From Candidatus Acidiferrales bacterium (lineage in GTDB: Bacteria; Acidobacteriota; Terriglobia; Acidiferrales; 2-02-FULL-67-57), in the NCBI GenBank assembly GCA_965247455.1, contig CBDFHE010000017.1:3048-67047 (forward strand): a stretch of DNA of 64,000 nucleotides, given 5' to 3'. The position numbers were made by a program, and so were the translations under genes. Below the pieces are notes generated by a model that did no database searches, was not told the origin of the DNA, and was given only the letters and a program-made list of their open reading frames with translations. This document shows positions 5,982 through 63,920 of this stretch, piece by piece. The stretch's first letter is position 1. Each line of letters starts with the position of its first letter.

Positions 5982-6353
5982 GACCTGACACCCAAGAACC
6001 GGTTCAGTTCTAATGTTAGAGTTGGGCCTGTCATTAGAAGGTCAAGATAGCAAAGAACAAGCATTCGACCGAACAGATGCTTGCTGGAAGGACAAGGCAT
6101 TCTGAGTGACTTGCTCCCCGCTTCCAATCCCTCTTCCGCCGCCTGTTTGCCGGCGGGCAGGCCTGCCCGCCTCGGGCGGGTTTATCCGCCGTGGCGGACG
6201 ACGGGGAAGCTTCTTGGCAATTGATTCTATTGCGCCTTCTCTCACGGGTTGCTATAAATCCCAAGCGTAGGTTCGGGGGCCTTTGGGGGATTCTCAGTAG
6301 CAACTTCTTCGGGTGTCAAGCATCTATAATTGAAACAGCAAAGAGGGGGGCGA

Positions 6354-6683
6354 ATGGCTAACTATCTTCTGATTGAATCGCGCGACCCGTTCGAGGCCCG
6401 CGACGTTTCCTATTTCTACAGCCTGGCCGCGGACCTCGCCGCCCAGGGCGACAAAGTAACCCTCTTCCTGGTTCAAAACGGGGCCTTGGCGTCGAGAAAA
6501 GATGCCAAGGGAAATCCGCTCGGCACTGTCTTGAAAGGCAAGGTCGAGGTCTTGGTGGATTCCTTTTCGCTCAAGGAGCGCGGCATCCAGGACTCGGAGC
6601 GGCACCCATCGGTCAAGCCCGCCGACATTGACGCCCTGGTGGACCACATCATGGCGAATGGGACGAAAGTCCTCTGGCACTGA
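6354..6683 (+). CDS. DsrE/DsrH(TusB)-like protein
   Basis: VTLFLVQNGAL...DSFSLKERGI pattern; RBS GAGGGGGG; first of three co-oriented DsrE-fold genes. Confidence 0.75.
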   Translation: MANYLLIESRDPFEARDVSYFYSLAADLAAQGDKVTLFLVQNGALASRKDAKGNPLGTVLKGKVEVLVDSFSLKERGIQDSERHPSVKPADIDALVDHIMANGTKVLWH

Positions 6684-6697
6684 GGGAGGCACAAACA

Positions 6698-7105
6698 ATG
6701 GCAAAAACACTAACCATTTCCATCATGGAACCCCCCTATGAGTCCGCGAACTCGACCACATCGTTGCGGATCATTGATGCAGCCCTCCGCAAGGGGATCA
6801 ACGTTAACGTGTTCGCCTACGAGGGCGCCGTCAGCCTGACGGTCAAGGACCAGAAGCCCCACCCCAACCCCGTCCACGGAACCTCGGTGGAGGAAGAGAA
6901 GCACCCCACCACCAAGGACTTTGTCGCGGGCCTGTTCGAGCTGGCCAAAGAGAACGGAGTCAAACTGGACTGGCTCAACTGCGGTCTCTGCGTGGACGAG
7001 CGCGGCGCTGGCAACTGGATCGAGGGCCCGCGGCGGGGTGGTCCGCCGGAATTCCACGAGTGGGTGCAAGAGCCCGATGCCACCCTCGTGATTCCGACCA
7101 AATAA
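6698..7105 (+). CDS. DsrE/TusD-like sulfur relay protein with CxxC
   Basis: ISIMEPPYES, VFAYEGAV, NCGLCVDERG at the position of the DsrE/TusD active cysteine. Confidence 0.8.
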   Translation: MAKTLTISIMEPPYESANSTTSLRIIDAALRKGINVNVFAYEGAVSLTVKDQKPHPNPVHGTSVEEEKHPTTKDFVAGLFELAKENGVKLDWLNCGLCVDERGAGNWIEGPRRGGPPEFHEWVQEPDATLVIPTK

Positions 7106-7119
7106 AAGGAGCTTGCGCC

Positions 7120-7503
7120 ATGAAAAAGATTCTCTGCGTTGTGGAGACCGCCTACCGCGGCACCCAAGAGGAACAAGACAACGCCGTACTCTGGCTCACC
7201 CACGCCCTGAAAAAGGCCGGGAGTGAGATGGGGGTGCTGTTGCGGGGGAACGCCGTCAACTATGCCGTCGCCAGCCAGGACCCCACCGGGGTCGTCATCG
7301 GCAAGCTCCCCATCGAGCACCCTCCCTATCCCCACAAGGACCTGCTCAAGATGAAGGAGGCCGGCATTCCCGTCCGCGTCGTGCGGGAGGACGCTGAGGA
7401 GCGCGGCATTTCTCCCCAGAGCCTGGTCAAGGATTTCACCCTCGTCAGCGGTAGCGAGCTGGCCGGGCTGTTCTCCCAGTACGACCAGGTCTGGCACTGG
7501 TAG
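7120..7503 (+). CDS. DsrF/TusC-like protein
   Basis: VLLRGNAVNYA, VREDAEERGI, C-terminal YDQVWHW; RBS AAGGAG. Confidence 0.75.
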   Translation: MKKILCVVETAYRGTQEEQDNAVLWLTHALKKAGSEMGVLLRGNAVNYAVASQDPTGVVIGKLPIEHPPYPHKDLLKMKEAGIPVRVVREDAEERGISPQSLVKDFTLVSGSELAGLFSQYDQVWHW

Positions 7504-7576
7504 CCGGCGGCTCGTTGCAACTCTGTAGCTGGGTTTGCTCAGCAGATCTGCGCGGGTTCACAAAAGGAGGATTGAA

Positions 7577-7891
7577 ATGAAGACGCTTTATCTGGTTCTT
7601 GCGATCATTGGCGCGGTGCTTCCCTATGCTTTCTTCATTCAGCATTTCTCAAGCGAGGGCGTCAGTCTTCCTGGATTTGTGGCAGCCCTATTCGCAAATC
7701 CGGCCGCGGGTGGTTTCACAACAGACTTTCTCCTCACTTCAGCAGTGTTTTGGATATTCATGTTTCATCAGCGCAGTCGAGAGAAAGGCCCGCGTCCAAT
7801 CCTTTTCATTGTGCTCAACTTCCTCATTGGCCTTTCCTGCGCCTTCCCCGCTTACCTGTATGCCAGAGAGCGGAAGGAAGAAACGGCTTGA
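7577..7891 (+). CDS. Small membrane protein, DUF2834-like
   Basis: RBS AGGAGG; three hydrophobic helices; FANPAAGGFTTD and IGLSCAFPAYLYARE patterns. Confidence 0.7.
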   Translation: MKTLYLVLAIIGAVLPYAFFIQHFSSEGVSLPGFVAALFANPAAGGFTTDFLLTSAVFWIFMFHQRSREKGPRPILFIVLNFLIGLSCAFPAYLYARERKEETA

Positions 7892-8034
7892 GGGGTCAAT
7901 CCTTCGCTCCATGCCAGAGGGGGTAATCGAGCAGAGCGATTGCATCGACCCGGGCCTGCTGGCGAGGCGTGGTCCCAATAGTCGAACGTCAGTTATGGCT
8001 TGAACCGCAACACCCCGCAACAAGAGTAATAGGC

Positions 8035-8070
8035 CAGGCAACCCGCTTCTTGCGCTATAATTCAAACAGA
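8035..8070 (+). promoter_or_regulatory. Sigma70-like promoter segment, copy 1 of a 36-bp direct repeat
   Basis: CAGGCAACCC...TTGCGCTATAATTCAAACAGA; perfect TATAAT; 31/36 identical to 9092-9127. Confidence 0.6.
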
Positions 8071-8088
8071 TCATCCCGGCTGTTAGGC
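8066..8088 (+). other. Right half of an integron attC site (L', R' core GTTAGGC)
   Basis: CAGATCATC...GTTAGGC; the GTTRRRY core at 8082-8088 is the exact complement of GCCTAAC at 9012-9018. Confidence 0.55.
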
Positions 8089-8119
8089 GGATCAACGCCT
8101 GAGTTAGGAGCCATTACTT

Positions 8120-8995
8120 GTGAAATGTTCAATTGCCCCGATTGCCGCAGCGCTGATTGTTTTGGTTTGCTTTGGGCAGCGAGCCCCGGCCCAGGAGCGG
8201 CGTCCGCCGATCATCGACATGCACCTGCACGCCGGCCCGGACGACAGTCTTCGCCAGCGCGTGGTCGCACTGATGGATGAGTCCAACATTGTCAAAGCAT
8301 TTCTTAGCGGCTCGCTGGAGGATGTCTACAGCTGGACTGCTGCTGCCCCGGGTCGATTCATTCCCTCGCCAATGTTCCCGGTGTCTGGGATAAACGGTTT
8401 TCCCGACATCGACAGTTTGCGTGCTGAATATCTTGCTGGCCGGCTTCACGGGATGGGTGAAATTACGTCTCAGTATTTAGGTATTCCGCCCAACGCGCCT
8501 AGCTTGGAACCGTTCTTTGCATTGGCCGAAGAGCTAGACCTTCCGGTCCTCATCCATATAGAGGGCATCGGCGCTCCGCACCCGACCTTTCGCTCGTCGG
8601 CAGGGCATCCGCTTCTCCTGGAGGAGGTACTGGTCCGCCACCCGAAACTCCGAATCTATCTGGAGAATGCCGGCTATCCATTTCTTCACGAGATGATCGC
8701 TTTGATGTTCCAATATCCCCAGGTTTATGCCGACCTATCGACCATTACTTGGCGCTTGCCGCGCGAGGCCTTTCACGATTACCTCAGCGCCCTTATCCGC
8801 GCCGGCTTCGGAGAGCGGCTAATGTTCGGGTCCGATGCCTCACCCTCGCGGCCGCATATGATCCCTCAAGCTGTTGAGGGCATCGAGTCTGCCTCATTTC
8901 TCACTGACGAACAGAAGCGCGACATTTTCTATAACAATGCGGTGAGGTTTCTACGATTGAGTAAGGAGACAATTGCTAAACATCATGGTCAGTAA
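8120..8995 (+). CDS. Secreted amidohydrolase (Amidohydro_2 family)
   Basis: Signal peptide; IIDMHLH, GMGEI, VLIH, RLMFGSD, DIFYNNAVRFL motifs. Confidence 0.85.
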   Translation: MKCSIAPIAAALIVLVCFGQRAPAQERRPPIIDMHLHAGPDDSLRQRVVALMDESNIVKAFLSGSLEDVYSWTAAAPGRFIPSPMFPVSGINGFPDIDSLRAEYLAGRLHGMGEITSQYLGIPPNAPSLEPFFALAEELDLPVLIHIEGIGAPHPTFRSSAGHPLLLEEVLVRHPKLRIYLENAGYPFLHEMIALMFQYPQVYADLSTITWRLPREAFHDYLSALIRAGFGERLMFGSDASPSRPHMIPQAVEGIESASFLTDEQKRDIFYNNAVRFLRLSKETIAKHHGQ

Positions 8996-9011
8996 AGAAC
9001 ACGGAGAGACG

Positions 9012-9051
9012 GCCTAACACGCCGATGAAGCTGACGGTCGGCTTCGCCGCC
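9012..9051 (+). other. Left half of an integron attC site (R'' GCCTAAC, L'' box), truncated
   Basis: GCCTAAC-ACGCC-GATGAAGCTGAC 17 bp after the stop codon; canonical RYYTAAC + 5-nt spacer + L'' layout; no matching GTTRRRY downstream. Confidence 0.6.
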
Positions 9052-9091
9052 CGGCGTAGCGCCCCGGCCGATAAGGCAAAGAGAAAGGAGT

Positions 9092-9127
9092 CAGGCAACC
9101 CCGCCGTTGCGCTATAATTCAAACAGA
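9092..9127 (+). promoter_or_regulatory. Sigma70-like promoter segment, copy 2
   Basis: TTGCGCTATAATTCAAACAGA upstream of ATG 9147 with a purine-rich RBS. Confidence 0.6.
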
Positions 9128-9146
9128 GGGGGGAAGGAAGGGTACC

Positions 9147-9794
9147 ATGCTACGGAAAGCACTTCTCGCCGCAACGCTGGCGTTGCTGCTCCCCTCACTG
9201 CTGCTGGCCGCCTACACCGTCGTGCTCAAGGACGGGCGTCGCATCGAAGCGCGCAGCCGCTACCTGGTGTACAAGGGGATGGTGAGGTTCACCGGCCTCG
9301 ATGGCCGCGCCTACCAGTTCCCCCTGACCGAGGTGAACCTGCTCGCCACCAACGAAGCCAACCGAACTGCTGATAAACCCAAGCGTAAGGTCTGGACCAA
9401 TGACGACCTGCAACACCTCAAGCCCGGCGCCCCTATCAGCGTGATGGGCGGGGCGCGACCGGCGGCATCCGCTACCGGCGAGCCGGGAGAAGCAGCAGCG
9501 GACGGGGCCGCCGAATCCGCCCCCAACCCGCAAGACACCCGCGAGTACTGGCAGGAACGCTTGAAGCCGCTGCGGGATGAGTTGGCACAGATCGAACGAC
9601 AGTTGCGGCAATTCCGCACCGGCCGGGGCCAGGCCGCCTCCAACGTCATCGACGTCAACACCAATGCCGGTGGCATCGGCGTCGCTGACGCCCTCCAGCG
9701 GCTGGAGCGCCGCCGGACTGAAATCCAGCAGGAGATTACCGCCCTCCAAGCCGAAGCTCGCCGCAAGGGCGTTCCCCCCGGCTACGTCCGCTAG
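9147..9794 (+). CDS. Secreted hypothetical protein (DUF4124-like, coiled-coil C-terminus)
   Basis: Signal peptide, KVWTNDDL motif, EYWQERL...coiled coil ending GVPPGYVR. Confidence 0.65.
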   Translation: MLRKALLAATLALLLPSLLLAAYTVVLKDGRRIEARSRYLVYKGMVRFTGLDGRAYQFPLTEVNLLATNEANRTADKPKRKVWTNDDLQHLKPGAPISVMGGARPAASATGEPGEAAADGAAESAPNPQDTREYWQERLKPLRDELAQIERQLRQFRTGRGQAASNVIDVNTNAGGIGVADALQRLERRRTEIQQEITALQAEARRKGVPPGYVR

Positions 9795-9941
9795 TTTCAC
9801 CCGACCGTTCCGACGCCCCTTCCTGTCAGTCCGCCTGCCCGCCACGGCGGGTCTGCCTTCCCAACGCCGCGCAGGCAGGAATGTCTGCGCTACCGTATCC
9901 TTGAGCGCCCCAGGCTGCGCCATGACCCGGCCGGGCCTTCC

Positions 9942-10721
9942 TCACGCCAGCAGGTCCAAGACGTCAATCACGAAATGCACCACCATCAGCCAGTAGAGGT
10001 CTCGCCGCCAGAGAAAAAACACCGAGAACCCCAGCGTAACGGCGAAAGCGAACAAGATGTTCAGCCAACCCAGGTAGGCGTGCCCGGCGCTGAACACCAA
10101 CGCCGGAAACAGAACCGCAAAGGGCAGGCTCCCGCTCCAGCGGTAGGTCCAGACGATGGCGAACCCGCGGAAGAAAGTCTCCTCCACCACCGCCGCCGTG
10201 AGCGCCAACGCCACCGAGAGCACCCGTTCCCCCGTCCACAGCGGCACCATCCAGTAGAGCCCGGCCTCCGCCAAACTGTAGTTGGGCCGGTGCAGCAGCG
10301 CCGCGCCCAGGAAAAATCCCACCAGCCCCAGCGCCACTGTCACCCGCCGGGCGTCCAGCCGCGGAAAGCCAACGCCGGCCAGCCGCTCCTCCTTGACCGC
10401 AAACACCACCAGCATCAACACGAACAGGCCCCACTGCTTGAAAATGGTGAAGCCGATCCAGGAGGCGCGGTAGAGGATGTCGCGGTTTTCCAGGTAGGCG
10501 CGCACCGCCGGGTGGTAGAACTGCGCGTACTGCACCAGCAGCGCCACCCCCAGCAGCACGGCTACGGGAAGAAAGCTGCGCTCTTGCTCGTGCTCGATCC
10601 CGGGCTCGCGCTCCGGCTCGGCTTCGGGCGCCGTCCAGCGCTCGAACTCTCCCAGCCAGCGCGTGAGCCGGTGGCACAAGCGGGGCTGGTTGGCCTCCTG
10701 ACTGTAGATTCGCAGTTCCAT
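9942..10721 (-). CDS. CPBP (CAAX/Abi) family intramembrane glutamic endopeptidase
   Basis: EETFFRGF, FSAGHAY, LMVVHFVID motifs; multiple TM helices; likely start MELRIY. Confidence 0.85.
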   Translation of the reverse strand: MELRIYSQEANQPRLCHRLTRWLGEFERWTAPEAEPEREPGIEHEQERSFLPVAVLLGVALLVQYAQFYHPAVRAYLENRDILYRASWIGFTIFKQWGLFVLMLVVFAVKEERLAGVGFPRLDARRVTVALGLVGFFLGAALLHRPNYSLAEAGLYWMVPLWTGERVLSVALALTAAVVEETFFRGFAIVWTYRWSGSLPFAVLFPALVFSAGHAYLGWLNILFAFAVTLGFSVFFLWRRDLYWLMVVHFVIDVLDLLA

Positions 10722-10740
10722 TCGCGCTCCCAAGACTATA

Positions 10741-11505: not shown

Positions 11506-11908
11506 TTCGGCAATTCCACCCCGTCGCCGGAGTTTACCGCGAGATCTTCTCCGAGGGGTCCCCCTCACCGGCAAGCGCGCCCGCCCCAAGCAGTAAGCCC
11601 CTCTTGCTGTCCTGAAACCACCCCCTTCCCGGCACGCTCAACCGCCCCCACCGATGCTATACCGATTGTGAGAGTTATTAACCGCAGGCGTCGCTCAACT
11701 TTTTGCAATAGTTGCCGACATAACTTGTGAAGGCTGTTGCCCTGAGAAAAACGTGCGCCCAGGGACAGGAACGGCTAGCGGCTTGACCAAATGAAAGGAC
11801 ATTCGTCCCCAAGGTAGACTTTCGAGAGATGGCCGACCAGACGCAGAATTCCCTCCGGATCTCCGCGCGCGCAAGCGCCCAAAGCTTCCTGCATCGGACT
11901 CGATTGGC

Positions 11909-14657: not shown

Positions 14658-14670
14658 ACGGAAAACCGGC

Positions 14671-15643: not shown

Positions 15644-15904
15644 GTTTCCCCCTCACTTTCGACTCGACGCTCCCGACCTTCGTGTGAAGCCTACTCCGGC
15701 GCTGCACCCGCGGTCAATCACCGACTCCGTTTCCCGCGCCCATACAGCAAGCGGGCGAGTTTTCCTGCTTCCATCAGCCCCTTGACTCCTACTACCCTCA
15801 GTCCGGAAGAGGTGCGGAGTTTATCCCCGTACGGGGACACCTGCTCCCGTTTTGTGGGTTGCAGTTTCAACCGCGACAACACCGGACTGCTCCTTCCGGG
15901 GGCT

Positions 15905-22978: not shown

Positions 22979-23071
22979 GCTTGTTGCCCAGCGGCAGGGG
23001 CCCCGCGGAGCGGGACAGGCCGCCGGGTTGGACTTTATTACTCCATTTTAACTACCCGTCCGGAAGAGGTG

Positions 23072-23090
23072 CCTGCCTACCGCAGGCAGG
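23072..23090. repeat. 19-nt hairpin micro-element
   Basis: CCTGCCTACCGCAGGCAGG inside a larger GGAAGAGGTG...GCACCCGCTTCC hairpin. Confidence 0.85.
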
Positions 23091-23149
23091 CTTCGCACCC
23101 GCTTCCCGACCTCGTCTAACCCCGTGGCCCCTGCCACGGGGAAACTTAC

Positions 23150-25978: not shown

Positions 25979-26094
25979 GAAGCCGGAAACCCGCCTACGC
26001 CAAGGCTTCGGCGGGCAGGTCGTCGAGCAACACTTGGTGGGCGGCAAGGTGGTGGAGCGCCTCATCAACCCGGAGCGCGCCGTCAAAGCCGAAT
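25907..26094 (+). repeat. 70-bp direct repeat of the ferredoxin 3' end around a 30-nt hairpin
   Basis: 25907-25976 vs 26025-26094, 2 mismatches; spacer contains CCCGCCTACGCCAAGGCTTCGGCGGGCAGG (25990-26019). Confidence 0.92.
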
Positions 26095-39732: not shown

Positions 39733-39933
39733 GGCTGTGGGTCTTTTTGAAAATGGGAAGCTCACGCCGAGCCCCGGGGCTTGTCCTGCCTGTCCCGAGC
39801 GTAGGCGAGGGAAGCGAAGCCGAAGGGCACCTGCCACGGGGCGCTTGTGCCGCTTTTCCGCCCGGCGGCCTGCCTGCGGTAGGCAGGCAGGTGCCCCGCT
39901 GGAAGGTACGGGACAGGCCGCCGGGCTCAGCGG
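39733..39933. mobile_element. Decayed copy of MITE family A carrying three inserted hairpin modules
   Basis: Colinear with 2525-2640 after removing inserts at ~39781-39828, 39869-39887 and ~39894-39917; right TIR not found. Confidence 0.75.
39869..39887. repeat. 19-nt hairpin micro-element
   Basis: CCTGCCTGCGGTAGGCAGG; absent at the same site of the intact MITE (2525-2666). Confidence 0.9.
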
Positions 39934-40013
39934 CCAACCAACAGTAGGCAAGCGGCGGGGCACAAGGCCCCGCCCTACCCCGCTGCTGGGCACAGAAACA
40001 GGTAGGGCAGGGG

Positions 40014-40032
40014 CTTGCCTGCCTCAGGTAGG
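40014..40032. repeat. 19-nt hairpin micro-element (variant)
   Basis: CTTGCCTGCCTCAGGTAGG interrupting GTAGGGCAGGGG|CTTGCC. Confidence 0.6.
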
Positions 40033-44349: not shown

Positions 44350-44703
44350 TTTCCTCCACCCGTCTTGCTCCAAGGCGAACGGCCGGACGGCCTCCGCCGG
44401 GCCTGGGGGTTAATCGATTAAGATGGAAACAGTTATCAGGATTTCCTTCGATTCTCAGCGCGCCGACGCACCCCTCCACGACTCGCCACACTAGATTAGA
44501 TCGAACCAGCCGCCTAAACCTTCCGCCAAAACCTTTCTAAATTAGCAGGTAAGCCCGCCCGCCGTCAACTCGTCTCCGGCAAAGGTAGTGTCTTAATTTC
44601 ACACCGAGCCCCCAGGCCCCTGCCTGGGGGAAGCGAAAATCCCTGCGGCGGGGGCCGCAGGGCTCGGTGTGATTTGGGCCGAGTTCCGAATCGCTCAAAT
44701 TAA

Positions 44704-46373
44704 CCCGGATTTCCGATTTGGCTGTGGTACCGTATCGCCAGGACCAGTCGCTGCGCCTTGAGTTTTGGGGCTCCGACGTAAGGAACCACACTACGGAGGG
44801 TGACACCCGGTGGGTGAATTACAACACGAGCCATTCCAGTTCGCGTTCAACGGCTTCTTGAAAGTCGCGTTCCAGGGATCGCGCGTCACTTCTGACGCTG
44901 GCCTCATTCTGGTGCGCGAGTTGGATGAACGTCTGGGGCTGGAGACACTCATCGCCGAGCACCTGAGCGATTCCCGACAGGGGATGAACACCCAGTTCAG
45001 CGTGGTGGATCTCCTGCGGCAGTCGGTCTACAGTCGCCTCGCGGGCTACGAAGATCTCAACGACGCGGGGCGCGTGTCGGCAGACCCAACATTTCGTCTC
45101 ATCGGGTCGCCAAAGCGCTGGGACCGGGGTGCGGCGCTGACATCGACGCTGCATTGGTTCGAGACAGAGCTGCTGACCCACGAGGAGAATCTCGTCGGGT
45201 TGAGGGCCGTGAACCGGGAGGTGCTTGCACAGGCCGAGATGGCGACGCGCGCCGACCGGATCGTGCTCGACATGGATTCGAGCGAGAGCCCGGTGCATGG
45301 GGCGCAGGAAGGGAGCGCCTATAACGGGCACTTCGAGTCCGTCTGCTACCACCCGCTGTTTCTGTTCACCGAGCATGGGGACTGCCTCGCCGCCACGCTG
45401 CGGCCAGGCAACGTGCATAGCGCCGACGACTGGGACGACCTGCTCGTACCGGAGATTGACCGGCAGCAGGTGGAGGGCAAGCGCGTAGCGTTCCGCGCAG
45501 ACGCCGCGTTCGCGAAGCCCGAGATCTACGACGCGCTCGAGCAGCGCGACGTGGACTATGCCATTCGCATGCCGGCGAACAAGAGCTTGGAGCTGGAAAT
45601 CGAAGACATCCTCTTTCGTCCGCCGGGACGGCCGAGCTGCAAGCCCTTGGTGCGCTACCAGAGTTTCCGCTATCAGGCCAAGAGCTGGACCACGCCCAGA
45701 CGGATCGTCGCCAAGGTGGAGCACCACCAAGGTGAGCTGTTCCCTCGCGTCGGCTTCATCGTGACCAACACGGCCCTCCCGAGCCGCTCGGTCGTGCGGT
45801 TTTACAACAAGCGCGGTACGGCGGAGCAATGGATCAAGGAAGGCAAGCAGGCCACCCACTGGACGCGGCTGTCGTGCCATCGTTTCCGGGCGAACGAGGT
45901 GCGCCTGCAACTGAGCGTCCTGGCCTACAATCTGGGCAACTTGTGGCGCAGACTGGTCCTTCCGCTGCGGGTCAAGCGCTGGTCGCTCACGAGTCTCCAG
46001 CAGCGACTGGTGAAAACTGGGGGCCGGCTGGTGAAGCATGCGCGGTACTACTGGCTTCTGCTGGCGGAAGGGCATCTCACGCGGCGGCTGTTCGGCGACA
46101 TGCTGCGGAGGATCTGGGCGCTACCCGTGCCGGCAGGCTGACGCGCGGCCTGAAGTGCAACGAAGCCCGCCCGGCGATGACACGGGGCACACGTGTGGAG
46201 CGGTGTCTGAGAAATGCCCGAAAAGCAGGGGTTCCAGTCGGTCGCACGTCGGCGCGGGCTCAGATGAAGGCCTTTGAAGCTGAGCGATTGTGCGACGATC
46301 GAAGTTTTTGTGCGATCGGCGGCGATCGGGTGTATAAACGTGCCATCAGGGGCAGGCAAAACGGAAATCCCGG
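44704..46373 (+). mobile_element. IS1380-family insertion sequence
   Basis: 17-bp TIR CC(C/G)GGATTTCCG(A/T)TTTG; 5-bp TSD ATTAA (44699-44703, 46374-46378). Confidence 0.92.
44810..46141 (+). CDS. IS1380-family DDE transposase
   Basis: TSDAGL, GYEDLND, LDMDSS, YNGHF, FRADAAF, YNKRGTAEQWIKEGK. Confidence 0.95.
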   Translation: MGELQHEPFQFAFNGFLKVAFQGSRVTSDAGLILVRELDERLGLETLIAEHLSDSRQGMNTQFSVVDLLRQSVYSRLAGYEDLNDAGRVSADPTFRLIGSPKRWDRGAALTSTLHWFETELLTHEENLVGLRAVNREVLAQAEMATRADRIVLDMDSSESPVHGAQEGSAYNGHFESVCYHPLFLFTEHGDCLAATLRPGNVHSADDWDDLLVPEIDRQQVEGKRVAFRADAAFAKPEIYDALEQRDVDYAIRMPANKSLELEIEDILFRPPGRPSCKPLVRYQSFRYQAKSWTTPRRIVAKVEHHQGELFPRVGFIVTNTALPSRSVVRFYNKRGTAEQWIKEGKQATHWTRLSCHRFRANEVRLQLSVLAYNLGNLWRRLVLPLRVKRWSLTSLQQRLVKTGGRLVKHARYYWLLLAEGHLTRRLFGDMLRRIWALPVPAG

Positions 46374-47446: not shown

Positions 47447-47621
47447 CAGAACTTCGGCTCCCCTTGCAAACAAGCCATTATAGGGGCGCTCGCGCCGGGT
47501 GTCAACGAGGTGTACTCGTCCAGTAGATTAGTGACACTTGGCCTCCTTTGATTGGGATTGCCACTGGGCCAGAAACTCGTGGGGAGTGAGGTAGCCCAGG
47601 GCTTGGTGCGGACGCACGGTG

Positions 47622-47640
47622 CCTGCCTGCCGCAGGCGGG
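47622..47640. repeat. 19-nt hairpin micro-element in transposase
   Basis: CCTGCCTGCCGCAGGCGGG; removal restores codons TAC AAC ACC GTG. Confidence 0.92.
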
Positions 47641-47837
47641 TTGTAGACGCGCTCCCACGCCTGCAACTCCTGATTGAGGGCCGCGATCTCCAGGGAGCAC
47701 TCCGTGACTTCACAAAACTCCTCCCGATGGGTGCGCTGGGCCCGCTCGACGCAGCCGTTGAGTTTGGGCGAGCGGGGCGGCAGCACGAACAGTTTCAACC
47801 CCCGCTGCTGGCAGGCCTCTTCGAAGACGGCGGCGAA

Positions 47838-47856
47838 CCTGCCTACCGCAGGCAGG
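47838..47856. repeat. 19-nt hairpin micro-element in transposase
   Basis: CCTGCCTACCGCAGGCAGG; removal restores AGT GAG TTC GCC. Confidence 0.92.
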
Positions 47857-48405
47857 CTCACTGCCGCCATTGACCTGCAGAGCTCGCAGCGGGAAGGGCA
47901 GGCGTTGCTGCAGGGTGTCGAGGAAGCGGGCCGCAGCGCTGGCCGTGGCTCGGCGGTGGACCTCGACCACGTCCCAGCGGCAGATTACAGCGCGAGCCGT
48001 AAAGTGCTTGAGGACCACGCCCGGCAGAGGCCGCAACTCCAGGGTATCGACTTGCACCAGATCGCCGGGCTGGGAGATGCAGTAATCCTTGGGCTTACGC
48101 ACGGCATAGGGCCGCCGCCCGCCGCGCCGGTGCGCGCGGACCGCCCGGCGGGGCGCTTCCACCAGCCGACCGCGCCTCTTCAGTTCCGTGAGGATGCGTC
48201 CCACCATCGAGGTGGACACCCCCACCCCTTCCCGGCGGAGCAAGACCACCAGTTTGCCTTCCCCCACCGGGGGCGCAACCGCCGCAGTCTCCGCACCCGT
48301 TCGGCCCACTGGGGGCTCCAGGTGGGCCGGCGTCAACGGTGGGGCCGGCGGAACCGCTCCTCCAGGCTCGCGAGGTGGTGGGGATCATAGCGGCGTTTCC
48401 AGCGG

Positions 48406-48424
48406 CCTGCCTGCCGCAGGCAGG
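48406..48424. repeat. 19-nt hairpin micro-element in transposase
   Basis: CCTGCCTGCCGCAGGCAGG; removal restores TTC TAC CGC TGG. Confidence 0.92.
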
Positions 48425-48686
48425 TAGAAGGTCGGCCGGCTGATCCCGAAGTGCCGGCAGGTCAGGGCCGCGTTGCGCCCCCGGGTGCGGTAGTAGTCCA
48501 TCCACTGCACCCGGACGCGAGCGGCCCGGCTCAATTCCACTCCGGCCCGCCCGTACGGGCGGGGTAGTCTTCTTGAGATGATTTGCATGGTGACACTCTA
48601 CCAAGAGTCACCCATCATTCTGAACGAGTACAAGCACGGTGAGAGGCGCGCACCCATTTGGCTGGGCTCGTGTAGAATAACTCGCG

Positions 48687-51907: not shown

Positions 51908-52030
51908 GGAGAAAAGTGTAGCGAAGCAGGGCGAGGGAAGCAAATCACCGTTCTCCCTCACTGCGGTTTTCCCCTGGTCGCGGGTCGATCCCACAAACAA
52001 ACTGGCGGTCCGGAAGAGGTGCCTGTCTAC

Positions 52031-52049
52031 CTCGCCTACCGCAGGCAGG
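52031..52049. repeat. 19-nt hairpin micro-element (variant)
   Basis: CTCGCCTACCGCAGGCAGG inside a GGAAGAGGTG... hairpin. Confidence 0.65.
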
Positions 52050-53012: not shown

Positions 53013-53022
53013 GGTCGCCGCC

Positions 53023-54486
<1,464 letters not shown>

Positions 54487-54890
54487 CTAGTGCTTTGTGT
54501 GACTCGTGATTGGTGACTCGAAACTCGTGCCGCCGAGGCTTGAAGCGATCGCCCCAGGGCGCTCAAGAGTTGACTCACGGATCGGCACAATTGATTCACC
54601 GTATCGAATTCTTGTTGGTTCATGTAACTCAAATCTTTGCTCAAGAGGGAGAAGTACCGCGTTTCCTCGGCCTCTCCGTTGGCGATCCGCAGGCTCCGCA
54701 AAAGCTCCTTGGTGGTTCGCCGTCCATAACCTTCCGCGATGTTTGCCGCCACCGAACTCGACGCGCGCCGCAACTGGGAAATCAGCCCGAAGCGCTCGTC
54801 TTGCGGGAATCCTCGTGTGGTCCCATAGATTTCCAGTGTCAAATCGTAGACTTTCTTCCACGCTTCCAACTCCTGAAAACTTTTGAGCAT
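54487..54890 (-). CDS. Four-helix-bundle (IVS/bAvd-like) protein
   Basis: FQELEAWK, FPQDERFGLISQLRRA..SVAANIAEGYGR; flanked by 7-mer tandem repeats. Confidence 0.9.
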
Positions 54891-54927
54891 CGATCTTCAC
54901 TGGTCGCAGGTCGCTGGTCACCGGTCG

Positions 54928-55842: not shown

Positions 55843-56002
55843 CGACTCTTCTTTTCTCCGACAAACCCACAGGCGGAAGCCTGTGGGCTGAACCAAACTA
55901 ATTCTGCCCGAAGTTGTTCAGCCCAGCGGCTTCTGCCGCTGGGAGTTCCCGCACCGGCTAAAGCCCGGTGCGTTCGCGCGCGGCTCTCGACCCGGCTGAA
56001 GC

Positions 56003-56021
56003 CCTGCCTGCGGCAGGCAGG
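56003..56021. repeat. 19-nt hairpin micro-element
   Basis: CCTGCCTGCGGCAGGCAGG interrupting GGCTGAAGC|CGTGCCC. Confidence 0.9.
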
Positions 56022-56061
56022 CGTGCCCTGACAACGAGAAGATTCCGTAGCACTCCTCATT

Positions 56062-57597
<1,536 letters not shown>

Positions 57598-57636
57598 TCT
57601 GTCGTGCCTCCCTTGCTATCTGCCCGACGCGCGCCC

Positions 57637-58200: not shown

Positions 58201-58203
58201 AGC

Positions 58204-58791: not shown

Positions 58792-59267
58792 GCGTTGCGG
58801 CCTCGTCGGCTGCCCGCGGCCGGGCGCTCCGGTGCCAGCAAGCTGTTGGCGATCTGTTCGGCCAGGAGCTGGCTTTGGGCGCCGAGGGCCTGCTTGGCTT
58901 GCTCGACGTCGCGGGCAATGTCGAGCCGGGCCTGGCGGGCCGACTGGTTGGCCTGCTCGCGGGTGGTGTGCAGGATGCGGCTGCGCTCGTCGAGGGCGGC
59001 GTGGCGGGCGGCTTCCTGCTGCCGATAGATTTCGGCCCGGCCCTGCCGCAGCGCCTCCTCGTACTGGCGCAGCTTTTCATCGGCGCCGGCCATGAGCTCG
59101 TCAGCCTGCCGGCGGGCGCCCTCGGTGGCGGCCTGGCGCTGGGCCAGCACACACTCCAGCGGACGCCAGAAACTCCAGCGCAGAAAGAGGTAGAAAGCGA
59201 AGACAATAATCGCGGTGGGCAAAGCGCCCCAGAGAAGGTCGGCCAATTGGTGGACGATGGAATCCAT
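58788..59267 (-). CDS. ATP synthase b' subunit
   Basis: N-terminal TM (FYLFLRWSFWRPL) plus coiled coil; operon position. Confidence 0.85.
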   Translation of the reverse strand: MDSIVHQLADLLWGALPTAIIVFAFYLFLRWSFWRPLECVLAQRQAATEGARRQADELMAGADEKLRQYEEALRQGRAEIYRQQEAARHAALDERSRILHTTREQANQSARQARLDIARDVEQAKQALGAQSQLLAEQIANSLLAPERPAAGSRRGRNA

Positions 59268-59377
59268 CTGCCTGCTCGTTGGGAGTTACAAAAGGACTCT
59301 ACCCGACTCCCCGTGGAGAGCAAAGAGTAAGATTTCTAACACAGGGGCGCGAATCGGTCAAGACAGGTGGGCGCTCT

Positions 59378-59507
59378 GGCAGTGTCTTGATTTCGCACCG
59401 AGCCCCCAGGCCCCTGCCTGGGGGAAGCAAAAAGCCCTGCGGCGGGGGCCGCAGGGCTCGGTGTGAATTGGGGTTGAGTTTGGAATCGCTCAAATTAGGA
59501 CACTACC
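59378..59507. mobile_element. MITE family B, uninterrupted copy
   Basis: TIR GGCAGTGTCTTGATTT / AAATTAGGACACTACC; flanking repeat GGGCGCTC(T/C); near-identical to 44584-44703. Confidence 0.88.
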
Positions 59508-59583
59508 GGGCGCTCCGGAAGTGGTCTGGAGGTTAGAAAAACTTAAGAAAGCGAGCGCAGAATAAGCGGGCCGAAGGGTCAGG

Positions 59584-60042
59584 TCAGCGACCGCGTCCCG
59601 GTCCGCGCGCGCGGCCTCCGGCAGCACGAGCCCGGCGGCGTCCTTGTGCGCCGGGACGCGCCTGGCCGCTGTTGCGCTGGGCGCGGCGACGGTGAAGCTG
59701 GCCGTGGCGCTTGGCGAAGCGCTTCTTCGCCTGTTTCACGCGCCGCTTGTCCTTGCGCAGCTTGGCCCCGGCCTCGCGCGCCTGCGGGCTGTCCTTGCCG
59801 GACTCGTCCACCGCTTGGCGGTAAGTCTGGCGGTCGGTTTGGAGCCGCTCGCGGGCCTGGGCAAACCGTTCTTGGGCTTTCTGGTGGAGTTCGCGGTGGC
59901 GGTTCTGTCGGTCGGTTTGTTCGGTTGCGGTTGGGTCGTTGCTGGGATCGTTGGCGTCTTGCGCGGCCAGGCCGACGGGCAAAAGCAAAGCCGCCCCCAG
60001 CGCGGAGGCTAGCATCCAGCGAATGAAGTTGCTCGATTGCAT
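59584..60042 (-). CDS. Hypothetical secreted helical protein with Arg-rich tail
   Basis: Signal peptide ending LAA-Q; RBS AGGAGAG; coiled-coil pattern. Confidence 0.6.
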   Translation of the reverse strand: MQSSNFIRWMLASALGAALLLPVGLAAQDANDPSNDPTATEQTDRQNRHRELHQKAQERFAQARERLQTDRQTYRQAVDESGKDSPQAREAGAKLRKDKRRVKQAKKRFAKRHGQLHRRRAQRNSGQARPGAQGRRRARAAGGRARGPGRGR

Positions 60043-60189
60043 GATTATCTCTCCTTTCGCCCTCGCCCCTGCCTTTCAAACAGTTCAACCCCGGCGGGGC
60101 GGAAAAGTTGCGGCATCTGGAAAGAGTTCTTGCCCCAGAGGTGCAGAGAACACAGAGAACTCGCAGGGAATTCCTCTGCGCTCTCTGCG

Positions 60190-60208
60190 CCTGCTTGCCG
60201 CAGGCAAG
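60190..60208. repeat. 19-nt hairpin micro-element (variant)
   Basis: CCTGCTTGCCGCAGGCAAG interrupting CTCTCTGCG|TCTCAGCGGTG. Confidence 0.8.
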
Positions 60209-60375
60209 TCTCAGCGGTGGAGCGGTTGGTTTCCGGCCCTGGCGCTATTCGTAGCGGAGGGCGAGCAGGGGATCGAAGTTGGTAGCGCGGTGCGGGAGAG
60301 AGTTGCGGCGGCTGCGAAGCGGGTGATAGCATTCTCCATCGGCTGGTCGCGGCCGCGGGGGATAAGGAGATACGC

Positions 60376-61545
60376 ATGGCCTTTCAAGGGGTTGACTTCC
60401 TCGAACTCGACTCGCTGCTGACGGAAGACGAAAAAGTGGTGCGGGCTTCGGTGCGGCAGTGGGTGGAGGAAAACGTCAAGCCCATCATCGAGAAGCACGC
60501 GCAGGCCGGCACCTTCCCCACCGAATTGATCCCTGAGGTCGGCCGGCTGGGATACCTGGGAGCGAACCTGGAAGGCTATGGCTGCGCCGGGATGTCGGCG
60601 GTGGAGTACGGCCTGATTATGCAGGAGCTGGAGCGGGGCGACTCCGGCCTGCGCAGCTTCGCCTCGGTGCAGGGCGCGCTGGTGATGTATCCCATCCTCA
60701 CCTACGGCTCCGAGGAGCAGAAGCAGAAGTGGCTGCCGCGTTTGCAGAAAGGCGAGGCCCTGGGCTGCTTCGGGCTGACCGAGCCCGGCTTCGGGTCGAA
60801 CCCCGGCGGGATGCTGACCACGGCGCGCAAGCAGGGCGAGGGCTACGTGCTGAACGGCGAGAAGCTCTGGATCACCAACGGCTCGGTGGCCGACGTGGCG
60901 GTGGTGTGGGCCAAGGACGACGACGGAAAGATTGGCGGCTTCCTGGTAGAGAAGGGCACGCCGGGCTTGAAGGCCTGGGACGTGCACGACAAGTATTCGC
61001 TGCGGGCGTCCATCACCAGCGGGCTGGCGCTGAGCGACTGCAAGATTCCCGCTTGCAACCGCCTGCCGAAGGCCGACGGGTTGCGGGCGGCGCTCGGCTG
61101 CCTGACGCAGGCGCGCTACGGCATCGGTTGGGGCGCGCTGGGCGCGGCCATGGAGTGCTACCAGACCGCGCTCGATTATGCCAAGGAGCGTAAGCAGTGG
61201 GCGGGCAAGCCCATCGGCAGCCACCAGTTGGTGCAGGAGAAGCTGGTGTGGATGCTGACGGAAATCACCAAAGGTCAACTGCTGGCCTTGCAAGTGGGCC
61301 GGCTGAAGGAGAAAGGCAAAGCGACCTTTGCGCACGTCTCGCTGCTGAAGAAGAACAACGTTTGGGTGGCGCTGGAGAGTGCGCGGAAGGCGCGCGACAT
61401 CCTGGGCGCGAATGGGATTACCGGCGACTACCCGGTCTTCCGCCACATGGTGAACCTGGAGTCGGTGTACACCTACGAGGGCACGCACGACATCCACACG
61501 CTCATCCTCGGCCAGCACATCACCGGCCTCCCGGCGTATGAATAG
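60376..61545 (+). CDS. Acyl-CoA dehydrogenase (glutaryl-CoA dehydrogenase-like)
   Basis: FGLTEPGFGS, KLWITNG, ARYGIGWG, LGANGI, YTYEGTHDIH. Confidence 0.92.
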   Translation: MAFQGVDFLELDSLLTEDEKVVRASVRQWVEENVKPIIEKHAQAGTFPTELIPEVGRLGYLGANLEGYGCAGMSAVEYGLIMQELERGDSGLRSFASVQGALVMYPILTYGSEEQKQKWLPRLQKGEALGCFGLTEPGFGSNPGGMLTTARKQGEGYVLNGEKLWITNGSVADVAVVWAKDDDGKIGGFLVEKGTPGLKAWDVHDKYSLRASITSGLALSDCKIPACNRLPKADGLRAALGCLTQARYGIGWGALGAAMECYQTALDYAKERKQWAGKPIGSHQLVQEKLVWMLTEITKGQLLALQVGRLKEKGKATFAHVSLLKKNNVWVALESARKARDILGANGITGDYPVFRHMVNLESVYTYEGTHDIHTLILGQHITGLPAYE

Positions 61546-61625
61546 CGGAAGGGCGGGTGCCCGTACAGGTACACTGAGCGCCCCTTCCGGACTGGATTAA
61601 TAGTTTTTGGGGAGGTGAAGTAAAA

Positions 61626-62609
61626 ATGCAGCGCGATCTTTCCCTGGACTTTTTGCGAGTGGTAGAGGAGGCGGCGATTGCGTCGGCGCGCACCATGGGC
61701 TTAGGCGACCGCCACGCTGCCGACAAGGCCGCCACCGAAGCCATGCGCAAGGAGTTGGCCACGGTTCCGATCAAGGGCCGCATCGTCATCGGCGAGGGGG
61801 AGCGCGACGAAGCCCCCATGCTCTTTATCGGCGAGCAGGTGGGCGCCGCGCCGAAGGACGGCGACAACTTTCCCGAAATCGATATCGCCGTCGATCCATT
61901 GGAAGGCACCAACCTCTGCGCCGCCGGCAAGCCCAACGCCATAACAGTGATGGCGGCCAGCGAACGCGGCGGGCTGCTGCACGCGCCCGACATCTACATG
62001 CAGAAGCTGGCGGTGGGCCCGAGCTGCAAGGGAGCGGTGGATTTGGAAGCGCCGGTCAAGGATAACCTGCGCGCCATCGCCCAGCGCCTGGACCGGGAGG
62101 TGGAGGACCTGGTCGTCGTGGTGCTCGACCGCCCGCGACACGAGCAGTTGATTAAAGATATTCGCACCGCCGGCGCGCGCATCCGGCTGATCTCGGACGG
62201 CGACGTGGCGCCGGCCATCGCCGCTGCCGTCATCGGCTCGGGCGTGCATGCGGTGATGGGCATCGGCGCTGCACCCGAGGGCGTCCTGGCCGCCGCCGCC
62301 CTGCGTTGCCTGAGCGGCGAGATGCTAGGCCGGCTGGTGACCATCAGGCCCGGAGACGTGGAGCGCATGGAGAAGATGGGGATCAAAGACCCCAAGCGCA
62401 TCTATCGCACCGAGGAACTGGCGCCGGGCAAGAACATCGTCTTCGCCTGCACCGGCGTCACCAGCGGCGACCTGCTGCGCGGCGTGCGCTTCTTTGGCGA
62501 AGGCGACCGCACCCACTCGCTGGTCATGACCCTCCAGCCCCACAACGTACGCTTCGTGGACGCGGTCCACGTTGACCGCGAGGGCGACTGCAAGATCCGC
62601 TTCTCCTAG
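61626..62609 (+). CDS. glpX: Class II fructose-1,6-bisphosphatase
   Basis: [41 protein letters not shown]. Confidence 0.96.
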
Positions 62610-62684
62610 GCCGGACCGGAGAATAGCGACTGGAGACGGGAACAATCCGGCGGTTGTTTCCGTAAAACAGGGTGAGGGGAGGGT

Positions 62685-63332
62685 GTGCCAACGATTAGTG
62701 TGAACTCTTTGAACCAAGAAGGTCGGCGGGGTGAACCCCGCCGTTGGCGGGACGAGCCCCGCTTACTGCGGGACGAGCGCGGCGGAACGCTGCAGGTGAT
62801 CTTGGCCATCGTCGGCGGGATCATCGCGCTGTGCGTGCTGGTGGCGGTCTGGGCGGTGCAACGCTACGTCCACATCGAAGTGGACGACAGCGGCGGGGAA
62901 AAGCGAGTCGAGATCAGCACGCCCTTCGGCGGCATCACGGTGGAAGAGGCGGAGGACGCGGCCCGCGACCTCAAGCTGCCAGTCTATCCCGGCGCGCGGC
63001 CCGATGACGAGAGCGCTTCGGTGCGCCTGTGGGGAGAAATCGGGGATGAGAAGGGCGCGCTCGACATCACCGTCGCCAAGTTCCACACCCGGGATTCCCT
63101 GGAGCAGGTGGACGCCTTCTACCGCGAGCAGCTTGGGGCTGAGTTCAAGCGCCAGGAGGGCCGCATCAGCGTTCGCGCTTTCAAGCACTGGAAGGGGCAC
63201 AGCCGAGTCGAATTCGACGGCGTGCTCTTCGCCGATGAATCCGCCACCCGCATGCGGGGCGTGGGCCTGGAGCCCAAGTCGTCCGGGGTGGAGATCACCT
63301 TGTTCGATGTTCGGGAAGAAGGCGAGCAGTAG
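62685..63332 (+). CDS. Hypothetical membrane-anchored protein
   Basis: One TM helix, LPVYPGA motif; GC-biased codon usage; start uncertain. Confidence 0.6.
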   Translation: MPTISVNSLNQEGRRGEPRRWRDEPRLLRDERGGTLQVILAIVGGIIALCVLVAVWAVQRYVHIEVDDSGGEKRVEISTPFGGITVEEAEDAARDLKLPVYPGARPDDESASVRLWGEIGDEKGALDITVAKFHTRDSLEQVDAFYREQLGAEFKRQEGRISVRAFKHWKGHSRVEFDGVLFADESATRMRGVGLEPKSSGVEITLFDVREEGEQ

Positions 63333-63420
63333 CGGATAGGGCTGCTAGCGCCGCCGTGCCACGCGGGAGTTCTCTCCGTGTTTTCTGTGCCTCGGTGGTG
63401 AAAGCCTTTCACCGCCGGGA

Positions 63421-63439
63421 CTTGCCTGCGGCAAGCAGG
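63421..63439. repeat. 19-nt hairpin micro-element (variant)
   Basis: CTTGCCTGCGGCAAGCAGG in an intergenic CAGAG-type repeat. Confidence 0.75.
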
Positions 63440-63458
63440 CGCAGCGACCGCTGAGAGG

Positions 63459-63920
63459 TCACCTGGCCTTGGTTGCCCCGCCTGTCCTGCTTGTCCGGAG
63501 CGCAGTCGAAGGGCGCTTTTTCTTCTTCCTTTTCGCACTACGGGGCGGGCGCTCGTAGGCGCAGCCGAACCAGCGCACCGCTTCTTCCAGGTGCGCGCGC
63601 GAGCTGAGTTCCACTTCCACCCAGCCGGTGAACCCCAGCCTTGACGGCCGGACGGCCTTGCGCTTGAGCGCGCGCTCGGCGTCGGCCGGCCGCAGCCGCA
63701 TCCAGGCATAGGTGGGCTCGCCGGGGCGGCCCAGCCACTCTGGTTTCTTCTTGCTGAGGGCGCGGTTGACGTAGCAGCCCAGCATCTGCTTGCCGCGGAA
63801 GAAAGCCAGCGCGCCCATCATGGGTCGCGCTTGCACGCCCGGCCAGGAGAGCAGCTCCGCCCGCAGGACTTCGCCTAGCTCATCCTCCAGCGGCCGCGTG
63901 CTCCAGTCAGCTTTCCGCAT
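63459..63920 (-). CDS. Hypothetical protein (possibly TfoX/MmcQ-like fold)
   Basis: LLSWPGV.ARPMMG..AFFRGK pattern; 153-aa ORF. Confidence 0.5.
   Translation of the reverse strand: MRKADWSTRPLEDELGEVLRAELLSWPGVQARPMMGALAFFRGKQMLGCYVNRALSKKKPEWLGRPGEPTYAWMRLRPADAERALKRKAVRPSRLGFTGWVEVELSSRAHLEEAVRWFGCAYERPPRSAKRKKKKRPSTALRTSRTGGATKAR

Follow-up and report, generated by a model that had tools for sequence, protein, structure and literature searches.

We found that element E, a single 19-nucleotide (nt) DNA hairpin, is a non-autonomous mobile element. It was studied in a 64,000-nt stretch of a Candidatus Acidiferrales genome (contig CBDFHE010000017.1), which we call the window. A search of the window with CCTGCCTRCSGYAGGCAGG recovered all ten copies that an earlier note, made from the sequence alone, had listed; five are exact, and five have 1 to 3 mismatches (Table 1). 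Dinucleotide-preserving shuffles gave 0.00 exact and 0.15 near matches. E is a real mobile hairpin that resembles the repetitive extragenic palindromic (REP) sequences, is far smaller, and spans phyla. The occurrence of the identical sequence in many phyla is its most unusual property, and this property is invisible from the window alone.

The oriented form of E is 5'-CCTGCCTGCGG[C/T]AGGCAGG-3', in which the arms are two CCTG units and their complement. As single-stranded DNA (ssDNA), the C allele is predicted to fold into an 8-bp stem with a 3-nt loop (-8.0 kcal/mol). The T allele, with T at position 12, is predicted to form a 7-bp stem with a 5-nt loop (-6.9 kcal/mol). Arm length is fixed, in that no variants with one or three CCTG units per arm were found, and the rare 20- to 21-nt variants differ in the center only. 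Seven of the ten copies in the window are intergenic, and three lie within a dead IS481-family transposase gene. The copies in the window are singletons, and tandem or nested pairs are scarce. No Rfam 15 family reached the gathering score anywhere in the window, and a tRNA scan of it was also empty. The window has no CRISPR-type arrays; two close E pairs in other loci (loci are given L numbers here) are tandem duplications with identical "spacers."

E enters DNA as an exact 19-nt unit, without duplication or loss of the target. This was observed in the dead IS481-family insertion sequence (IS). The minus-strand reading of its transposase gene is broken at RPTFY/RWKRRY, NGGSE/FAAVF, and VYN/TVRPHQALGY. 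With exactly the three 19-mers removed, the reading frame is continuous except for one TGA and one 1-nt deletion. The repaired transposase matches an intact 334-amino-acid (aa) relative, P0001, with 93% identity. The protein joins left after removal (QTFY/RW, GGSE/FAA, and YN/TVRPH) are contiguous and conserved in seven homologues. At the DNA level, alignment with an intact IS copy that is ~94% identical (L133) left three clean 19-nt gaps, with a junction ambiguity of at most 1 base. For the copies at 47622, 47838, and 48406, this confirms the earlier proposal that rebuilt empty sites have no target-site duplication (TSD). The size of the inserted unit likewise bears out the proposal that E is far smaller than ordinary non-autonomous elements.

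Gap alignment and frame repair together show that this 1.1-kb pseudogene took three E insertions versus two other disabling lesions. The non-coding DNA of the window contains ~1 E per kb. By a rough Poisson estimate, ~1.25 copies are expected in the IS, and the probability of three or more is ~0.13. Three copies in one IS are therefore consistent with dispensable DNA being hit at random. The IS also has an 18-nt hairpin at 48546, which was considered as another in-frame insertion but was ruled out, because the homologues are not shorter there.

A scan of 185,579 species-representative genomes found the identical 19-mer in at least 118 stretches from at least 15 phyla. By record title, the hosts include Patescibacteria (several classes), Bacteroidota, Ignavibacteriota, Acidobacteriota (many of them Acidiferrales), Planctomycetota, Omnitrophota, Thermodesulfobacteriota and other former Deltaproteobacteria, Myxococcota, Gamma- and Betaproteobacteria, Nitrospirota, Elusimicrobiota, Verrucomicrobiota, WOR-3, Marinimicrobia, and others. 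The set includes isolates, such as Algoriphagus halophilus (complete genome) and Galbibacter orientalis DSM 19592. Many hosts have a G+C content of 30 to 45%, and the composition of the flanks is that of the host. By our own estimate, the chance of the E pattern in a 35% G+C genome is ~1e-12 per position. More than one copy is present on several contigs. We infer that the identity across phyla reflects horizontal spread of an enzyme-hairpin pair, combined with strict recognition of the hairpin. A literature search by literal sequence (19-mers, half-sites, and the "gtcattgcgag" repeat) found no paper containing E, and searches by phrase were likewise empty.

Two vectors were considered and rejected. 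Phages are poor candidates, because exact E is scarce in IMG/VR (13 stretches) and no Y1 relative was found there. For plasmids, PLSDB contained no exact copy.

E has a defined strand, no sequence-specific target, and a preference for hairpin loops. We analyzed strand alleles in 133 exact copies from 118 genome loci and the window. The central 5-mers were GCCGC (39 copies), GCGGC (32), GCGGT (30), ACCGC (28), GCCGT (2), ACGGC (1), and ACGGT (1), so that GCGGT/ACCGC outnumbered GCCGT/ACGGC by 58 to 3 (binomial p = 3e-14). The T12 allele is tied to the central G, and therefore E has a defined strand. The T allele places a G.T wobble on the center-G strand and an A.C mismatch on the opposite strand. 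Both the C12 and the T12 allele are found in every host G+C class. The tetranucleotide GTAG occurs only within the T allele, where the loop meets the 3' arm. The strand-specific allele also counters the idea that E is an excision footprint made of two leftover transposon ends. We rejected that idea because unattached CCTGCCT half-sites are about as frequent as expected by chance (31 seen, 16 of them inside hairpins, 14.65 expected).

The strongest flank signals in 142 distinct oriented flank pairs come from the +1 base, which is C in 56%, and the -1 base, which is T in just 8%. No conserved tetranucleotide stands beside E in these pairs, except where it comes from other repeats that host E. 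The class-3 "CnGA" foot, as reported for Acidobacteria, is missing at E, and the three IS sites share no microhomology with it. When the empty sites were rebuilt, 10.7% lay within a perfect stem (6 bp or longer, loop no longer than 8 nt), versus 2.6% of nearby controls (Fisher p = 6.5e-5). This test supersedes a cruder loop test based on minimum free energy, which gave 17.6% versus 16.3%. The junction is frequently at the stem-loop boundary of the host hairpin. For example, the target of the 47838 copy lies in the loop of a potential GGCGGC/GCCGCC hairpin. In L046, L108, and L030, E is nested inside the loop of E itself, between G10 and G11.

Only dispensable DNA retains E copies, which then undergo neutral decay. 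Among 106 copies in loci with less than 55% G+C, just 8 fall in open reading frames (ORFs) of at least 120 codons. Transitions account for 9 of the 10 substitutions in the decayed copies of the window, and none of the substitutions restores pairing.

Comparison with relatives gave further evidence of insertion. Three independent assemblies of near-identical strains (L119, L134, and L135; 99.2 to 99.6% identical to the window, ~18 kb compared) keep every E in the compared regions, namely, those at 39869, 40014, 47622, 47838, 48406, 52031, and 56003. The 48406 copy is common to the window, L119, and L135. These strains do have other differences from the window, namely, a 74-nt block, an IS3 insertion, and a 30-nt deletion. 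More distant relatives (L136 to L145) have 92 to 96% nucleotide identity, and their 20-kb serS-atp loci contain no E at up to 3 mismatches. The 52031 copy sits in a ~190-nt block that is missing from L136 and L139, where the spacer is 60 nt rather than 250 nt. The spacer with the 56003 copy cannot be aligned with that of L136 and L137, which has no E. The exact 39869 copy is missing from relatives at ~92.6% identity, although the tgt-yajC flanks still align. It lies at the border of an additional 145 nt, a block immediately next to the 40014 copy. That decayed copy is present in identical mutated form in L142 to L144 and is therefore an old insertion. The metagenome-assembled genome (MAG) that contains L143, B25T1B10, has E copies at other sites (L084, L105, and L108). 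The shared old copy and the lineage-specific copies elsewhere indicate that E has long been active in this clade, at different sites in each lineage. Together with the precise gaps in the IS, these differences agree with the earlier view of E as an inserted element and not a host signal. Presence/absence polymorphism, which that note had made its touchstone, is thus found at the IS level and against relatives at 92 to 95% identity, and it is absent among the strains at 99.2 to 99.6%.

How might such a hairpin move? REPs have been known for about forty years, and their mode of multiplication is still unsettled (PMC8266576). We suggest that E moves as a folded single strand. A Y1 HUH enzyme, REP-associated tyrosine transposase (RAYT) or IS200-like, encoded elsewhere in the genome, would supply the activity in trans. 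It would bind the hairpin, cut both feet of the stem, and rejoin the hairpin into exposed single-stranded targets. Since E has no guide bases outside its stem, this scenario would explain the absence of a sequence-specific target. We favor this single-strand route because of the hairpin dependence, the strand asymmetry, the loop preference, and the similar hairpins around IS200-like Y1 genes described below. An HUH/Y1 route for E is plausible; we offer the full scheme, with cuts at both stem feet, tentatively, and rate its chances at slightly under even.

As the earlier note had stated, no mobilizing enzyme is encoded in the window. Pfam and NCBIfam searches of ~40 window proteins found no HUH, reverse transcriptase (RT), or unusual nuclease gene, and domain, jackhmmer, and tblastn searches found no Y1 gene there. 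All-against-all clustering of 131 loci found only generic families recurring near E, and the ORFs between paired E copies are housekeeping genes only. Outside the window, we searched for Y1 genes with jackhmmer and tblastn, in which IS200 and RayT sequences served as probes only. One Y1 gene was found, in L093 (Algoriphagus sp.), where two exact E copies lie ~3 kb away. By its motifs (DHVH, WQ, and YIQDQEIHH), it matches the IS200-like "subclass 1.2" (PMC6006769). Members of this subclass are low-copy, occur in Cyanobacteria and Bacteroidetes, and are generally without IS200-type terminal structures (Quentin et al. 2018, PMC6006769). Y1 classes with high-copy atypical hairpins have been reported in Acidobacteria and Bacteroidetes (PMC6006769).

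We then sampled metagenome loci with relatives of the L093 gene (the best 80 of 492 detected). Perfect hairpins of 17 to 22 nt occur at 3.3 per kb within 120 nt of the Y1 gene ends versus 0.54 per kb beyond 500 nt. The upstream hairpins have GTTA, GTCA, or GTA loops, and the downstream hairpins have the complements TAAC, TGAC, or TAC. Because the loops are complementary, the hairpins on the two sides are inverted, in a REPtron-like manner. Examples from L146 to L226 are TGCATTCC-GTTA-GGAATGCA and CCGTCCC-GTA-GGGACGG. Like E, these hairpins are short and perfect, with 7- to 8-bp stems and asymmetric 3- to 5-nt loops, and they are repeated near the gene. Unlike E, they have other sequences and are arrayed beside the gene with a ~55-nt period. 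The core xTGCC...GGCAx, known from E, is among their stem cores, and they carry GT(T)AG at the loop/3'-arm junction; the T allele of E contains GTAG. E-like 20- to 21-mers were found near 5 of 81 Y1 genes and cluster beside such genes in L093 and L149. In L149 there are five to six E-like copies, one of which is inserted in a gene-proximal hairpin. The REPtron-like flanking arrays of these subclass-1.2 genes differ from the account of the subclass in PMC6006769. In L226 and L149, the Y1 gene lies within ~300-nt direct repeats.

Several results weigh against the Y1 route. Across the E-selected loci L001 to L118 and L120 to L132 (~1 Mb), a Y1 gene occurs in L093 alone; the hairpins next to that gene differ in type from E, as do those of L226. 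None of the Y1 genes examined is flanked by the exact 19-mer, and the RAYT or TnpA(Y1) gene flanked by these hairpins that the earlier note had suggested looking for was thus not found in these loci. E-like sequences are no denser near Y1 genes (10 per 206 kb) than in E-rich Acidiferrales DNA (11 per 157 kb). With neither exact E in flanking position nor an excess in density, the link between E and Y1 genes is one of architecture and co-occurrence only. No conserved GT[AG]G tetranucleotide lies 0 to 2 nt 5' of the stem foot in 142 copies, and the 142 flank pairs have no invariant target of the IS200/IS605 type. There is no orientation bias relative to neighboring co-directional genes (30:19, p = 0.15) or to the majority coding strand (47:35, p = 0.22), both of which serve as proxies for replication-fork direction. 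No E-only polymorphism was found in the ~18 kb compared among the near-identical strains. In addition, some E copies ride in larger repeats, and because these copies are passengers, not every copy is an independent event. We know of no experimental precedent for a Y1 enzyme that acts on a lone hairpin without flanking guide bases. The REP-like HUH/Y1 movement proposed earlier, with palindrome-associated transposable elements (PATEs) as a second model, is therefore supported in part: strand asymmetry, loop preference, and similar Y1-flanking hairpins agree with it, but E has no REP foot and no invariant target. A lagging-template rule fits 4 of the 10 window copies by our own count, with replication inferred by proxy from the sign change of the GC skew near 46 kb.

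The best of the alternatives is a mobilizer outside the HUH group. This could be a structure-specific nuclease with a ligase, a tyrosine or serine recombinase acting on the palindrome, or repair that ligates hairpin oligonucleotides into loop nicks. Such an agent would suit the lack of a Y1 gene linked to exact E and the lack of a foot or guide motif and of a fixed target. The variable palindrome center of the minor 20- to 21-nt variants and the occurrence of E in very small Patescibacteria genomes also fit. However, the strand asymmetry and the preference for loops speak for a folded single strand and against a dimer-bound duplex palindrome. The 3-nt spacer is too short for the known core sites of tyrosine recombinases, and no candidate gene recurs near E. 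We judge a non-HUH mobilizer to be clearly unlikely.

Templated synthesis is less probable by a wide step. Here, an RT or primase-polymerase would copy a conserved small RNA or DNA, or snap-back synthesis at breaks would yield (CCTG)2-loop-(CAGG)2. The arms are indeed two CCTG units and their complement, but the absence of variants with one or three units per arm counts against this reading. A conserved master template would account for the same sequence in distant phyla and for neutral decay, yet E matched no Rfam family or RNA gene, and the C12 and T12 alleles coexist in all G+C classes. The varying center length of rare variants fits synthesis as well; the lack of an RT gene in the window and of microhomology between the insertion sites and E does not. 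This reading seems very unlikely to us.

We give a marginally smaller chance to the reading that E is a passenger of larger repeats and recombination, kept for a host function such as a terminator, an RNA-stability hairpin, or a protein-binding site. Copies do occur in larger shared repeats (GTCCGGAAGAGGTG-E-..., an Acidobacterial repeat, and the "gtcattgcgag" type), and the 39869 and 52031 copies lie within larger blocks of extra DNA. However, three clean insertions of 19 nt only are in coding sequence, and the 142 distinct flank pairs have no common context. A T-rich tail, on either strand, accompanies just 14 of 148 copies, so that E fails as an intrinsic terminator. Compensatory changes are missing from the decayed copies, and AT-rich genomes from unrelated phyla have the sequence as well. 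Finally, although most matches come from MAGs, a sequencing or assembly artifact or chance is effectively refuted by the ten copies observed versus 0 to 0.15 in shuffles, by the same insertions in independent assemblies of related strains, by flanks that match host composition, and by the presence of E in isolate genomes (one complete) and in assemblies that, going by their record and contig names, came from different projects and assemblers.

Among known systems, E is closest in kind to REP/RAYT systems (REPtrons and REPINs). Both are short, G+C-rich extragenic palindromes with many copies and no TSD (PMC8266576, PMC3116915, PMC6006769). REPs are also thought to be processed as folded single strands by Y1 HUH enzymes in trans, and they too are targets of other insertions. 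However, E has 19 nt versus the usual 21 to 65 nt, and it is a lone perfect hairpin, not a doublet, REPIN, or bacterial interspersed mosaic element (BIME). It has no GTAG/GTGG foot 5' of the stem, and no RAYT gene flanked by it was found in the loci searched. REPs are lineage-specific and mostly vertical, whereas E is identical in at least 15 phyla. With IS200/IS605 elements and PATEs, E shares the absence of a TSD and, if the Y1 route holds, hairpin-dependent single-strand transposition and a Y1 enzyme able to act in trans. Those elements are at least 100 nt long, need two subterminal hairpins and guide tetranucleotides, and insert 3' of an invariant 4- to 5-nt target. In contrast, E is exactly one hairpin of 19 nt and has no conserved flank. 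Miniature transposable elements with inverted repeats (MITEs), which are DDE-transposase derivatives, have terminal inverted repeats and a TSD; E has no TSD at the three reconstructed sites.

The nearest in size and behavior may be the small dispersed repeats (SDRs) of cyanobacteria (Nostoc and others), which are reportedly mobile, 21 to 27 nt long, and nested in other repeats and hairpin contexts. They resemble E in being far below MITE size and in nesting; they differ in that they are described from one phylum, whereas E is smaller, a perfect hairpin, and spread across phyla. Fungal mitochondrial genomes have mobile palindromic clusters, rich in G+C, and double-hairpin elements; like E, these are short G+C-rich hairpins that enter AT-rich genomes, genes included. 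These are organellar and longer, some have target duplications, and their sequence is unrelated to E.

Few mobile DNA elements observed to date are as small or as widespread as E. The surprising parts are the identity across phyla and the base-exact 19-nt insertions. Should this distribution result from horizontal spread, it would conflict with the current view that REP-type elements are bound to lineages and inherited vertically, and it would also set a new lower size limit for transposable elements. There are three empty sites in one gene, a 19-nt substrate with a built-in C/T strand marker, and hosts that can be grown (Algoriphagus and Galbibacter). With such exact events, a small marked substrate, and these hosts, cut-and-paste of a hairpin into ssDNA can be tested directly with oligonucleotides. 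In MAG annotation, E hairpins give rise to pseudogenes with frameshifts and to false ORFs (peptides such as PACGRQ and LPAAGR). They are also markers of rapidly evolving spacers, which are useful for strain typing.

A broader speculation is that E is the tip of a hidden class of 17- to 22-nt "mini-REP" hairpin transposons that reshape the intergenic DNA of environmental bacteria. E would then be the smallest transposable element known, a bare hairpin without guide or target bases, which travels horizontally through most bacterial phyla together with a small gene for a Y1 HUH enzyme (IS200-like subclass 1.2 or class 3). Its insertion into single-stranded hairpin loops would be frequent enough to rival point mutation in neutral DNA; the dead IS has three E insertions versus two other disabling lesions. 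We regard this wider claim as rather unlikely.

Table 1. Copies of E and other hairpin features of the window
Feature	Position	Strand	Context
Probable decayed 20-nt E variant	6142..6161	not assigned	E20 consensus CCTGCCTGCCGGCAGGCAGG, three transitions
E, exact, T allele	23072..23090	-	CCTGCCTGCGGTAGGCAGG on minus strand; between two minus-strand genes, within composite GTCCGGAAGAGGTG-E-CTTCGCACC
E, exact, T allele	39869..39887	+	tgt-yajC spacer
Decayed E, 3 mismatches	40014..40032	-	tgt-yajC spacer
Dead IS481-family IS with three E copies	47510..48628	-	also one in-frame TGA and one 1-nt deletion
E, 1 mismatch	47622..47640	-	dead IS481-family gene, between codons YN and TVRPH; empty site in L133
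E, exact, T allele	47838..47856	-	transposase gene, between GGSE and FAA; empty site in L133
E, exact, C allele	48406..48424	-	transposase gene, between RPTFY and RWKRRY; empty site in L133
E, 2 mismatches	52031..52049	-	within ~190-nt block, again after GTCCGGAAGAGGTG
E, exact, C allele	56003..56021	+	atpG-atpA spacer
E, 2 uncompensated transitions	60190..60208	-	divergent intergenic region
E, 2 uncompensated transitions	63421..63439	+	convergent intergenic region
22-nt hairpin family	2564-2585, 2605-2626, 23120-23141, 44609-44630, 44641-44662, 55866-55887, 55922-55943, 59403-59424, 59433-59458		

The earlier note had also listed CCTG-initiated relatives of E. One of them, at 6142, is a plausible decayed 20-nt variant; the rest belong to other families, so that at least three repeat families without relation to one another had been lumped together. 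Those at 39789 and 63481 belong to an unrelated repeat of ~50 nt with the core CTTGTCCTGCCTGTCCCGAGCGyAGkCGAGGGAAGCGrAGCCGAAGGG, found at ~39790 to 39838 and ~63470 to 63520 of the window and at 7638 to 7690 and 4520 to 4570 of L108. The copy at 39790 sits in the loop of a 22-nt hairpin, CCCCGTGGC-AGGT-GCCACGGGG. This copy is missing from L143 and L144, where the hairpin is intact. Those at 6162 to 6180, 9834 to 9852, and 25990 to 26019 (minus strand) are a different hairpin, which starts with CCTGCCCGCC, closes with GGCGGG, and has loops of 3 to 14 nt. Hairpins of the type CCCGCC...GGCGGG adjoin the 19-mer in L033, L043, L070, and L117 and may be a further mini-hairpin family.

The window has 68 perfect hairpins versus 15 to 32 in Markov controls. 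A second family is a 22-nt hairpin, CCCnnnnGGC-nnnn-GCCnnnnGGG, with a 9-bp stem, a 4-nt loop, and covarying inner stem bases. Its members are often doublets 10 to 35 nt apart, and the 44609/44641 pair recurs at 59403/59433. A conserved 14-mer, GTCCGGAAGAGGTG (15801 to 15814, 23058 to 23071, and 52008 to 52021; ~4858 to 4872 of L084; ~2945 to 2986 of L132), stands at the start of a GGTG(C)...(G)CACC hairpin, which is filled either by E (23072, 52031, and L084) or by the mini-hairpin TCCCC-GTAC-GGGGA (15801 and L132). The GTCCGGAAGAGGTG motif was also found on an IMG/VR contig. Other small cross-phylum repeats that host E are GTCATTGCGAG...GAAGCAATC, an Acidobacterial GTCATCCCGAGCGCAGCGAGG/GATCTGC, and the ACCACAGAGGACACAGAG type. 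Loci with such host repeats include L007, L011, L037, L047, L050, L067, L098, L107, L109, and others. The 74-nt segment at ~39893 to 39966, which is missing from the 99.4%-identical L134, is bounded by the 7-nt direct repeat GCGGGGC. It shares CGGGACAGGCCGCCGGG with window positions 23011 to 23027 and could be a small mobile element or a microhomology deletion.

By frame-specific G+C mapping and domain searches, the window (~63% G+C) is an ordinary chromosomal region. Its genes include secDF-yajC-tgt, rpoD, rplU-rpmA, serS, and the atp operon. In addition to the dead IS481-family element, it contains an ISNCY (4608 to 5981) and an IS1380 (44810 to 46141) element. The ISNCY-family element is intact; a related strain also has one beside rpmA, where it is interrupted by an IS3. 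Intact IS copies are without any 19-mer. In L135, an IS3 element is inserted in the dead IS481 at approximately window position 47725. The cumulative GC skew is lowest near 46 kb; this point may be a replication origin or may simply reflect the IS cluster there. Positions 1 to 4000 have a lower G+C content (54 to 58%) and encode an adenylate-cyclase/SPOR protein and a 519-aa ORF without a family match. Between atpD and atpG, inside the ATP synthase operon, lies a four-helix-bundle gene (54474 to 54890, minus strand). It encodes a 23S rRNA-intervening-sequence protein (TIGR02436) with a weak match to Avd of diversity-generating retroelements (DGR), and relatives have the same gene at that place.

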